NCBI RefSeq assembly: GCF_037042905.1
Contig: NC_087245.1
Location: forward strand, 16,928,001 to 16,992,000
Length of the DNA stretch: 64,000 bases
Origin: Lytechinus pictus
Taxonomy: Eukaryota
Direction of reading: 5' to 3'
Under the pieces are notes generated by a model. It ran no database searches. It was not told the DNA's origin and saw only the letters and a program-made list of their open reading frames with translations. Positions within the stretch are counted from its first letter, which is position 1; each line of letters starts with the position of its first letter. Position numbers and translations under genes: made by a program. This document shows, piece after piece, positions 25,474-48,600 of the stretch.

Positions 25474-26899
25474 TTACTGGGTGGTGGCGAGTGCCTTGAA
25501 TCCTGACCTAGTAATTGAATTGTCGCTGATAAACCTCACATACATGGAGTTCTTGGTGGAAGTTATTGGTGTAGGGATCGTGTTTCCACACACTTTTTCA
25601 AGGTAAGGACCATGCATATCACCATCATGAACCTGTTTGGAAGAAAAAAGGGAAATCTAAAACAATGTTTCAGATAACCGATTAAAGGCCTACGCCAATA
25701 GCTCGTCAGTTGGAAGATAAAAACAAAAGTAATTTCCTCTGAATTTCTTAAACTATCAGTTCTTTCTTTTCTAGATGAATGATTAAAAACGATAGGCAAA
25801 GTATTATTGCTAGTTAGTTATAGGAAGGGAATTAAGATCAGCCTCGATTTTACTCTTACACTTTACTCTTTACACTTAGTAAGGCGGCGCCCATGCAGAG
25901 AGATCACATATCGATATAGATATACCACTGACAAATCAGCGTGCATGATATTGTATTGAACGAGGAAAAATGCCCACCGCTGGATTTCTGTTAGATTGGT
26001 TTTTAATAAACATAAACTAAATCTAGCGATTTGCAACTCTTCAAAAGATTATGGGCAGATGGAGCCAAGATTTAAAACAGGAAAGAGAGAGTTACAAAGG
26101 AACGAGATACCTCTACTGCATCTGCACTGCATGAAACATGATCTTCTATATCGATGTCGTCGAAAGATAGAGTGATAGTCTGACCGACAGGGGCGTGGAT
26201 AGTGAAAGAACAATCAGCATTGTTTCCGTATGTATCAGGGTAGTTGGGCGACGTCAAGAGACTTGTTGCAGAGCTGATAGTACTACCACAAACTGGAAAT
26301 GTGGAAGAAAATAGGGGACGGGGCAAGGAATAGGAAATAGGAAGGGGGAGGGGCAAGGAATAGGGAATAGGAAGGGGAAGGAGAATGTGCATACTTATAG
26401 TTCGAGGTCATAAAGGAATTTGAAGAGAGGTAGGATGATAAGAATATTCAGCATAGACAGAGCAAGAGAGAGTGTGGGTATGAAGAATAGACAGGCAAAT
26501 AGGTAAGAAATAAACAAAATGAAAATGAAAAGATGAAGACGAAAAAAATTAATATTGAAGAGACAGGAGGGGGCGTGAGAGAGGGAGTTAAACAGTGATA
26601 TTCAACATTTCATCTTTATACTGTCGCACGTAATATACATCAATATTTGAATTTTTTTCCTTTTGAATGTGCTTAATCGTACTGAATGTCGTGTTTTTTG
26701 TTAATCTATCGACGAAATCACATTTGAATGGTGGTATTTCAGGTGTGCATTTCAGTAGCTGCATATTACCACACTTTAGGTAGTGTAGATGTAATAAGTA
26801 CATTTCTTAACGTATTTCTATTAAAATTATTCTTACACACATTATTGTTACACACCTCCGATCTCTAAAGTTTGGTAGGACGCAGAGAAGCCTCTCTTC
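25474..26899 (-). pseudogene. Gene C 3' part: end of the interrupted exon 9 plus CUB2 exons, separated from the rest of the gene by the 18.8-kb insertion
   Basis: Exon 9 remainder 26893-26856 (..RGFSASYQTLEIG, GT donor), exon 26292-26111 (CGSTISSATSLLTSPNYP..), exon 25632-25474 (VHDGDMHGPYLEKVCG..TTQ*). Sizes 182/159 match genes B and D. Confidence 0.92.
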
Positions 26900-45673: not shown

Positions 45674-48600
45674 CTCTTCTGGACAGAGTTATCACTTCTG
45701 AAAACAAGGAGCAAACTAGTACCAGTACTCATGAATGCATCAGGAAGAGTATTGCCGCATAAAACATAAAGCACTGGATCCTCTATGCTCGCTCCATCGT
45801 AAGTCTGCAAGAAACAAGTGATAGAGTTTTTTTTTTTTTTATCTGATCTAACGAGGGCGGCAAGACATAAAATAAGGGCCATTGTTTGTCAGACATTCTT
45901 CTTCATCTTCCGGGAACAGTACAGGCCAACGCCTGGTGTATTGTCGTACTGGTAGGAGATTTTGATCGCTCAATCTATTTTCCTTTCCTTTTTGCTTCCC
46001 ATTTTAATTTCTAAGAGTTAAAACAAATCCGGTGGATGTGAGAACTTTTTTTGTTTTAAAAATAAAATTGATCTCCTTTTCATTTACGAGATTCGGATTT
46101 GCCCGTATGCACTAGCGTACCTACGGGGGGGGGGGGCAGGGGGGGCACTCTGCCCCCCCTGACGAGTCAAAACCCATGCCAAAACGTATCTTTGCCCCCC
46201 CTGACGGGCTTGAAAATTTTTTTTTGCCCCCCCTGATGAGCTTTAAGACCTTCAATGCCCCCCTGACGAGCTTGAAGACCTTTTTTTTTTTTTTTTTTTT
46301 TTTTTTTTTTTTTTGCTTGTCAACTTTTTCTGGTACGAAAGTTATTATGTGTGATCGAAGACCTTTTTTTTTTTTTTTTTTTTGCTTGTCAATTTTTTTC
46401 TGGTACGAAATCCTTTATTTCTGATCGAAGACCTTTTTTTTTTTTTTTTTTTTTTTTTTTTTTTTTTTTGCTTGTCTAATTTTTTGGCGGACGGTTTTGC
46501 CCCCCCTGTCGAAAATCCTAGGTACGCCACTGCCCGTATGAAATTCTACACCCACATGGTGTACCGTGAAAGTGAAACTACTACACTCATTCTTCTCCGC
46601 CATGGAAACCTTCAGAAGTTTATCATGACGTGTCTTACAAAAACAGATGATTTTGCACATCCCACAAGTACAATGAGTCCATGTCATGAATCATCGGACA
46701 GAGTAACTTTGGCAGGTTTGGTTTATTGTGAGGCAAAATATTCCTCCTATAGGCATATAAATAGGAAGTCGGAACCGGGTGGAAGAACATAATTAAGAGA
46801 CTAGGAAAAGAAAACAAAAATCACATTTCCAGCTCAGGAAAATAACCCCCATCCCCCAATCGCAATCACGTTATAAAAAAGAAACAGAAAAACATTTTAT
46901 GCAAAATCTGAACGATATATAAAACTGCAATATATCATTACCGTGAGTGAATCGTACGAACATTCGGCATGGCTCTCGATGTCAAATGTATCAAAGGAAA
47001 GAGAGATGACTTCTTTCTCATTGGTCGTCGTCAAAAGGTATTCGCAGTTCATGTTGTCAGTATAAAAATCGGGATAATACGGGCTAATGACCGTCCCAGA
47101 TAGTGAATTAAGTACCTGATTGCAACCTGCGTTGAGTTGTTATTATCAATTTCGTTATTAAAAAAAGCAGAACAAAAAGCACAAAGAATAAAACTTTATA
47201 TTAGGATGAAACACGCCTTATATGGATAGTGTTATACGTAATGCTACGGTACAAAATCTAATCTTTCAACGATAAATTGTAATGAAACGTTTGAGATAAT
47301 AGACAGATTTAGCACAGTCGTATTCATTGTAACCAAGAGAGAAGTTTAAAACAGGAGTTATAGAGAAGTCGATCGTTTCATATCTCTTCATATAGCTTTC
47401 GAAATGGAGGTACCATGGCCTTGTGGTCTGAGGCGCTGGTTGGCTTAAGATATGAAATTACGGTTGTTGTTTTCTCTTTCTTTGAAATGGACACAGTGTG
47501 TACGTCATTTTGTCTCAGTGACGTAATGCGCCAACATTTGTGAAGGGGTCATACCGGGCGTATGGGGCAAACGTAAAAAAAAACTGCGAGAAAACGAAAA
47601 GAATGAGATAGATTTCGACAAAATATTCACAAAATCATATCACATTTCACCGTTTTTCTTTTTTCTTTTCTTTTTTTTTCTTCAATCCTTTTGTTTTATT
47701 GCTAGTAATTTTTTGGGGGTGTTCGGTAAATGAGAGGCATGTTAATCAAATCGTACTAAGCTATAGATACCTGCGTGGATGTAGCCCCCTCCCGATCCCT
47801 TCCCTACATAGAGGAGTAAGTTTGGAGATCCTTCTTTTGCGTCCGATACTTTATCTACCACAGCTTTGAGTTGAAGCGTATCCTTCACTTCAGAGGGCAA
47901 GAGGTTCGGGTTGGCACCAAGTAAAGCTGCTGCAGCACCTAAATGATGAAGAGACAATGAAATGAAAATTAATAGCGGTGTATAAACGTACATTCCAATA
48001 AAGAATAATAAGGGAAAGACACCATTTATGCTTAGCCATGCAGAATATAGCATACTTTACTGTGTGATATCTGCATGCAGTTTATCAGTGATTGGTTCAT
48101 GTTGCAATACCATCGGCTTAAGTAGTACAAGGGCCTAAGGTGTGTCTTCTGAAGTTCGGCGTAAACATGGACAGGCTCTTAAATACATAAATCATGGTCA
48201 AAGCAAACTAAAACAAGCCAATCTTAAAAAATAAAATGCATCCTTTAAATTTCATACTAATGAAAGAGAAATGTAGGTCTACACTTTAACTGTATCTTTA
48301 ACTGTATCTGACCCAGCTGGCACAATACATAACCCTGCCATATTGAGGTACCGGAATAATCAAAGAAGGGTACCAAGGGTGCCAGGCATAGAGGTAGGCA
48401 ACCGCTGATGATAGAAGAACCATACCTGCTACATGACAGTAAGCAACAAAGTACCAATTACGGTATAAAAAGCCTATTTGATCCTTGTTTAGAAGTTAAA
48501 GTGGCACCACCTATGACAAAAGTAGTCGACATTCAGCATGTTCTGTACGATGGTAAGTCATACTGGTGCCATTCTTAGAAAAATGCCGTCAAAGTGTCAC

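Follow-up and report, generated by a model that had tools for sequence, protein, structure and literature searches.

How does a coding exon of an otherwise intact gene come to hold 18.8 kb of transposon DNA, and what would follow for the gene and for the species? The question arises from a stretch of 64,000 nucleotides of the sea urchin Lytechinus pictus (contig NC_087245.1, positions 16,928,001 to 16,992,000 of the forward strand; called the window below), in which a block of 18,774 nt (26900-45673) lies inside exon 9 of a minus-strand, 11-exon protease gene of the subtilisin type (53579-25474) of S8-CUB-CUB architecture. The explanation that we hold to be probable is that a 3.5-kb foldback element without genes, bearing in one of its arms a 15.3-kb transposon that is likewise without genes, sits in exon 9 and marks a young, unfixed allele predicted to make no full-length protein.

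Two Nested Elements in a Coding Exon

When the block was removed together with one copy of its flanking 6-bp target site duplication (TSD), CTCTTC, we recovered 11 exons with 615 codons and no internal stop, GT..AG borders at all ten introns, the catalytic residues D132, H165 and S321, and an exon 9 of 131 + 38 = 169 nt. A preliminary description of the window had reported this restored frame, with its splice sites and triad, and had given exon 9 the same size as a counterpart, which we located in the right-end paralogue (61889-61721). The parts of the block-free gene are:

53579-53469, 51838-51722, 51559-51320 and 50973-50826, minus strand: exons 1-4, in frame, GT..AG
49605-49409, 48795-48624, 47938-47771 and 47126-46942, minus strand: exons 5-8, in frame, GT..AG
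46942..53579, minus strand: content of exons 1-8, with the N-terminal leader, I9 propeptide, S8 domain with the triad and first half of the first CUB domain (CUB1)
45674..45804, minus strand: 5' part of exon 9, 131 nt including the TSD copy 45674-45679; covered by the X1 contig described below
26856..26893, minus strand: remaining 38 nt at the 3' side of exon 9, which cover the end of CUB1 and the linker and have a donor of their own
26292-26111 and 25632-25474, minus strand: exons 10 and 11, second CUB domain (CUB2) and stop

CTCTTC abuts the block on both flanks; the chance that all six bases agree at two preset places is about 3e-4. The block is bounded by 1,535-nt inverted arms (26900-28434 and 44139-45673), which differ by four substitutions and no gap. 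Since the terminal bases recur in a second copy of the family (12053-15880), which has a 6-bp TSD of its own, we set the ends of the outer element at TA..TA (two of two window copies) and its TSD at 6 bp. The exon site would also accommodate a TSD of 8 bp with one mismatch, a reading that was ruled out by the ends and the 6-bp TSD of the second copy. Without the inner element the outer element measures 3,515 nt, against 3,828 nt for that copy. The inner element is inserted within the right arm of the foldback and has a 2-bp TSD (AG, 28880-28881 and 44139-44140); its 13-nt terminal repeat (28882, 44138) has only two exact matches in the window, and its empty site can be seen in the left arm and also, at 14342-14359, in the second copy. 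Instead of one element, the block comprises an outer and an inner one, both flanked by a TSD of their own:

26894..26899 and 45674..45679: TSD copies of the outer element, CTCTTC, 6 bp
26900..28881: left arm and short middle of the outer element, with the severed inner piece of its right arm
28882..44138: inner element, 15,257 nt, with 13-nt perfect terminal inverted repeats starting CCCTG; CACTA/CMC-like by its ends
29005..29334: ACGTCA-rich subterminal array at the left of the inner element, with 4.6 units of 71 nt
43620..43889: ACGTCA-rich subterminal array at the right of the inner element, with 3.1 units of 88 nt
44139..45673: right arm of the outer element, 1,535 nt, with a 770-nt AT-rich outer domain (31-nt and 20-nt tandem units) followed by a unique inner domain

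The insertion of 18.8 kb into a coding exon, as first proposed, is borne out by the arms, by the duplicated CTCTTC and by the limits of the block inside exon 9. The name "composite transposon" then given to it applies in the sense of nested elements. It does not apply in the strict sense of a complete element with two ends on each flank: here both flanks belong, as its two arms, to a single element, and the second copy joins such arms around a short middle. There was no stop-free frame of at least 120 aa in the outer arms or in the copy at 12053-15880, the shorter frames of the arms lying outside the Pfam scan, and an Rfam search of 26800-45900 returned no match.

The Inner Element and Its Cargo

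Subterminal repeat arrays are a trait of CACTA elements, which the 71-nt and 88-nt arrays match, and 32 of the 34 ACGTCA motifs of the inner element sit in 500-nt bins at its two ends. No transposase was found by Pfam in 150 of its 151 stop-free frames of at least 42 aa, a search that small spliced exons could escape; the sole match was a weak zinc finger (E 0.0099, below the cut-off). Two older sequences are carried as cargo:

33124..35630: older element with inverted-repeat arms that are about 900 nt long and 80% alike
39838..40469, minus strand: frameshifted, C-terminally cut piece of a family of 274-279-aa proteins

The protein family of the second piece (P0009-P0012) is coiled-coil, unnamed and without a Pfam match above the cut-off. 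The Atlas gave as a lead Transposase_22 on 22% of one cluster and Baculo_FP_2nd on 90% of the top one; from this lead, we take the piece to resemble the first open reading frame (ORF1) of a non-LTR (long terminal repeat) retrotransposon. The frame 40469-40077, considered as a BEN-domain protein or as a transposase partner, was dropped as part of this frameshifted ORF1-like piece. Because the cargo, with its 80% arms and frameshifted ORF, is far more decayed than the two outer copies have diverged from each other (0.8-0.9% in the inner domain), the inner element probably jumped as one 15-kb piece.

Further small inverted-repeat elements lie within the inner element at 36070-37580 and 37630-38410 (both by eye) and at 42313-42740 (measured), the last resembling repeats at 20445-20841. 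A short plus-strand stretch between AG and GT (38505-38695) has no Pfam match; its translation resembles the C-terminal end of an RTE-type long interspersed element (LINE) protein.

A Second Copy With Closely Alike Arms

The other outer-family copy in the window allowed us to compare arms within and between copies:

12053..15880: second outer-family copy, 3,828 nt, TSD TTAAAC, located in intron 4 of the plus-strand paralogue and free of the inner element

In the inner domain, the two arms of the exon copy showed no difference in 761 nt and those of the second copy three in 751 nt, against a divergence of 0.8-0.9% between the two copies. Indels of 14 nt and 4 nt were common to both arms of one copy and absent from the other, and arm likeness was higher within a copy than between copies. 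Judged from these alignments, the arms are homogenised within each copy, or rebuilt from one arm, and for this reason arm identity is no clock for the insertion; dating by the near-identity of the arms was rejected on account of the indels shared by both arms of each copy. The two foldback copies lie 11 kb apart in adjoining paralogues and could serve as substrate for inversion or deletion between them.

The Uninterrupted Gene in Other Records

The L. pictus protein XP_054758499.1 (615 aa) is identical to the block-free protein at 614 of 615 residues and runs continuously through the insertion point, as does the L. variegatus orthologue XP_041477119.1 (615 aa, 587/615 identical). At the sole residue that differs from XP_054758499.1 the window carries the L. 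variegatus residue, which argues that XP_054758499.1 represents a different haplotype. None of the 615 residues of the window differs from both Lytechinus proteins. The time without selection would thus be less than about 0.002 substitutions per site if the whole gene was freed (approximately 1,414 non-synonymous sites), the bound rising to 0.010 if freedom from selection was confined to the part beyond the junction. Because there is no such private amino-acid change, the insertion is likely to be young and not fixed.

We also consulted 16 listed sequencing runs, four of which (X1, X4, X14 and X16) were aligned to 45634-46270; ten of the 16 share few words with the window (at most 0.13), none is recorded as RNA, and the search provides no evidence on expression. 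A contig of run X1, from another sample (1,095 nt, depth about 10), aligned to 45802-45674 with two differences in 129 nt, entered neither intron 8 nor the arm, left the window exactly at the junction and continued for 94 nt. The 872 nt ahead of the match fit the length of exons 4-8 (870 nt) plus two unaligned exon bases. This single contig is likely to be a spliced transcript of the empty allele. Its alignment begins two bases into exon 9 (45803-45804), which may represent end clipping or an allele difference; the L. variegatus protein also differs at this codon.

At the other side of the junction, loose ends accumulated at 45673 (29 reads in X14, 16 reads in X16 and eight contigs in X4, with an agreement of 0.46-0.56). 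Since these reads and contigs from other loci stop matching there and have mixed flanks, the outer family has many copies, under both organism labels.

With the intact L. pictus protein, the X1 contig and the lack of private changes, the suggestion that the insertion is recent and unfixed in the species appears likely to be right, and the sister-species orthologue is uninterrupted at the site, as this suggestion would have it. The split or truncated gene models that had been foreseen for such a locus did not appear among the longer relatives of single exons, which is weak evidence.

Predicted Effect on the Transcript and the Protein

Read-through into the arm is predicted to reach a stop at codon 507, and skipping of exon 9 a stop at codon 459. 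The insertion has itself made a possible splice donor:

45669..45677, minus strand: junction-made GT, formed by the last TSD base and the first element base; possible donor in phase with exon 10

Splicing from this GT (45674) to the nearest acceptor, an AG ending at 26899 that is also junction-made, would shift the frame and again give a stop at codon 507. Exact, intron-like removal of the insertion was rejected: no tested donor-acceptor pair gave all 615 codons, the closest giving 614. Since the coding strand of the arm has an AATAAA hexamer at 44992 and three ATTAAA at 44958-44918, a truncated, polyadenylated message with the whole protease domain is possible. Loss or truncation of the protease is likely to be a better bet than its rescue by splicing.

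RNA Differences in the Arm Family

In the 40 nt of arm examined, all six listed differences in the stranded RNA runs X14 and X16 were A>G or T>C. The 68 A>G calls fell only on first-mate-minus reads and the 19 T>C calls only on first-mate-plus reads (45644-45657); neighbouring sites share reads, and 25 lesser table rows lie outside the listed differences. The DNA run X4 had no such letter at five of the six sites and 161 at a depth of 4,442 at one. The editing-like reads come from other copies of the family, and X4 has another organism label, so that variation between copies could also account for them. A strand-specific A>G/T>C pattern is the one expected for A-to-I editing of double-stranded RNA. 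Because of this match, and given the usual library orientation, the data suggest that transcripts of the foldback family fold back in cells.

Comparison With Known Transposon Groups

TA..TA ends and a 6-bp TSD are stated for IS3EU and GingerRoot (PMC10045372, PMC6839031), and the outer element shares with these groups (PMC10045372, PMC6839031, PMC12730594) both features (TSDs CTCTTC and TTAAAC) as well as terminal inverted repeats. It differs from them in that no integrase-like DDE transposase was found in it, and looks like a non-autonomous dependent. Its arms, which contain internal tandem arrays, are at least 1,535 nt long, against 100-150 nt in Selaginella GingerRoot, and its ends read TATGAGG rather than the TAYGG of fungal IS3EU. 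Polinton/Maverick and Ginger2 also have a 6-bp TSD and were set aside for their ends, AG..TC or TG..CA versus TA..TA. Scans with the end motifs gave one chance match in metagenome contigs (L001, with the 20-nt motif only) and none in viral contigs.

In its architecture, the outer element resembles the foldback elements Tetris, FB and Galileo of Drosophila (PMC4079207), with the same long arms, outer domain of tandem repeats, inner domain, variable non-coding middle and non-autonomous state. Tetris, however, has TSDs of 8-10 bp and is assigned to Mutator, whereas the TSD is 6 bp in both copies here. According to the same source, several superfamilies can give rise to a foldback structure; it also cites a sea-urchin foldback element of Lieberman 1983.

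CACTA-like elements are described with CCC or CMCWR ends and a 2-bp TSD (PMC3227409). The inner element shares with CACTA/CMC-EnSpm its CCCTG ends, which fit both motifs, its 2-bp TSD and its short terminal repeats. The zebrafish ichabod insertion (PMC13189230) is also non-autonomous, has a 2-bp TSD and damages a gene from within an exon, but measures 2.5 kb and lies in a 3' untranslated region, whereas the inner element is 15.3 kb long, filled with old repeats and located inside another transposon. As no transposase or autonomous partner was found, both superfamily labels are based on ends and TSDs. Literature searches on spliced-out DNA transposons, L. pictus transposons and the protease family found no publication on this locus; they were too loosely aimed to show its absence from print.

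The Host Protease and Its Cluster

The interrupted gene encodes an I9 propeptide, an S8 domain and two CUB domains, Pfam recognising S8 and CUB on single exons and I9, S8 and CUB on the protein P0001. On the 5' part of exon 9, positions 62-103 of the CUB profile matched with E 0.0009, below the Pfam cut-off. The best solved relatives of the encoded protein are 2b6n (proteinase K-like, E 5e-92) and aqualysin-1, 4dzt. With its S8 domain, triad and I9, the gene is by its predicted product a peptidase S8 of the proteinase K-like type, for which protease activity is predicted. The I9 propeptide and the S8 domain with its Asp/His/Ser triad are shared with proteinase K-like S8 proteases and with the Lytechinus proteins named "extracellular serine proteinase-like"; the two C-terminal CUB domains distinguish the urchin gene from the former. 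No functional study of this gene turned up in a limited literature search.

The window contains at least four S8-CUB protease paralogues (1-2465, 9459-23158, 25474-53579 and 59992-61889). The equivalent of exon 9 is 187 nt long in the plus-strand paralogue. The right-end paralogue is identical to the interrupted gene at 160/182 nt of exon 10 and 146/159 nt of exon 11, but at only 100/169 nt of exon 9; gene conversion, or a stronger constraint on CUB2, may lie behind this contrast. A near-perfect direct duplication with a period of 663 nt (3245-3900 and 3908-4570) was observed upstream of the leftmost paralogue.

Competing Explanations and Meaning

In the mechanism that we propose, the outer element would have been moved in trans by a transposase of IS3EU/GingerRoot type, and the inner one by a transposase of CACTA/CMC type, as their ends and TSD lengths suggest. 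The inner element would have jumped as one 15-kb piece into a foldback arm, and the nested pair, formed elsewhere, would have landed in exon 9 as one 18.8-kb unit. We lean slightly towards this last step because the family lineage is older than the exon 9 insertion. Transcripts would either continue into the arm, with a stop at codon 507, or be spliced out of frame, and the allele would be degraded or would yield a protease without the end of CUB1 and all of CUB2. The paralogues of the cluster, together with the intact allele, would let the broken allele persist. Several points weigh against this account. The effect on the transcript is predicted from sequence, and in the four aligned runs no read or contig crosses from exon 9 into the arm. 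The runs attest the empty site by the one X1 contig. The raw RNA runs X14 and X16, of which about 6% each was read, had no depth at exon 9 and the DNA run X4 did not cover it, so that these three are uninformative on the allele. Finally, neither element encodes a transposase that we could find, and no autonomous partner was found.

The order of landing is the part of the account most open to an alternative, in which the foldback entered the exon first and the 15.3-kb element followed; everything else would be as proposed. The outer copy without the inner element speaks for two such hits, and large elements may move less often, but both hits would have to fit the short time allowed by the undecayed coding sequence, and we give this order somewhat less than an even chance. 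That the insertion is fixed in the sampled lineage, a population or a cryptic species, which would make the gene a young pseudogene rather than a polymorphism, is quite improbable: the intact records may come from other populations than the animal of the window, but the intact L. pictus protein differs by one amino acid, at a site where the window has the L. variegatus residue, and X1 differs at only two of 129 exon nt and has no insertion. Long inverted arms are hard to assemble and no junction-spanning read was seen in the four runs, as would be expected if repeat-rich contigs had been misplaced in the exon. We nevertheless regard such an artefact as barely credible in view of the exact TSDs of both nested elements, for each of which there is an independent empty site, of the arms, which differ at four places and carry copy-specific indels, and of the element end at 45673, which is reproduced by reads from other loci.

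The fate of the transcript leaves room for a partial rescue, whereby the junction GT (45674) or a nearby exon GT would be joined to exon 10 and the insertion removed in a larger intron, giving an in-frame protease at least 13 codons short that keeps CUB2. The 130 nt that precede the junction GT finish in phase 1, like the full 169-nt exon; the joining of this GT to exon 10 would give 602 aa with no early stop; the frame is also kept by the GTs at 45695, 45722 and 45728 and by two weak acceptors in the remnant, which end at 26892 and 26865. The junction donor, however, reaches 2.0 on a matrix built from the 22 real donors of the cluster, which range from 5.7 to 11.4 and are favoured by having served as its training set; of the 900 GT sites in the element, 193 do as well. 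The intron side of this donor sits at the base of the stem formed by the two arms, and the nearest acceptor, ending at 26899, shifts the frame. The X1 match stops at 45674 and not at 45675, and so is not the junction-donor form. Such a rescue seems unlikely to us. A bolder scenario, only a little less doubtful, is that an 18.8-kb foldback of the little-studied IS3EU/GingerRoot group jumped whole with its CACTA-like element and that the segregating allele remodels the gene: the exon would end in the arm (hexamers 44992-44918) or use the junction donor, an active secreted protease would be made with its CUB domains removed or trimmed, and the arm stem would be edited by ADAR.

Under the explanation that we prefer, the young allele without full-length protein, the insertion is an ordinary event of a known kind, with no pointer to a new mechanism. 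It provides a clean, base-exact case in which a coding exon of a laboratory sea urchin is broken by a large nested DNA transposon, with other records of the urchin carrying the gene intact, and it illustrates that the allele displayed by a reference assembly can be a broken one even where the species has the intact gene. With it comes one more foldback-shaped family, its ends being of the IS3EU/GingerRoot type, and the locus offers a simple test, by PCR and RNA, of the effect of a 1.5-kb foldback on splicing, polyadenylation and RNA editing.

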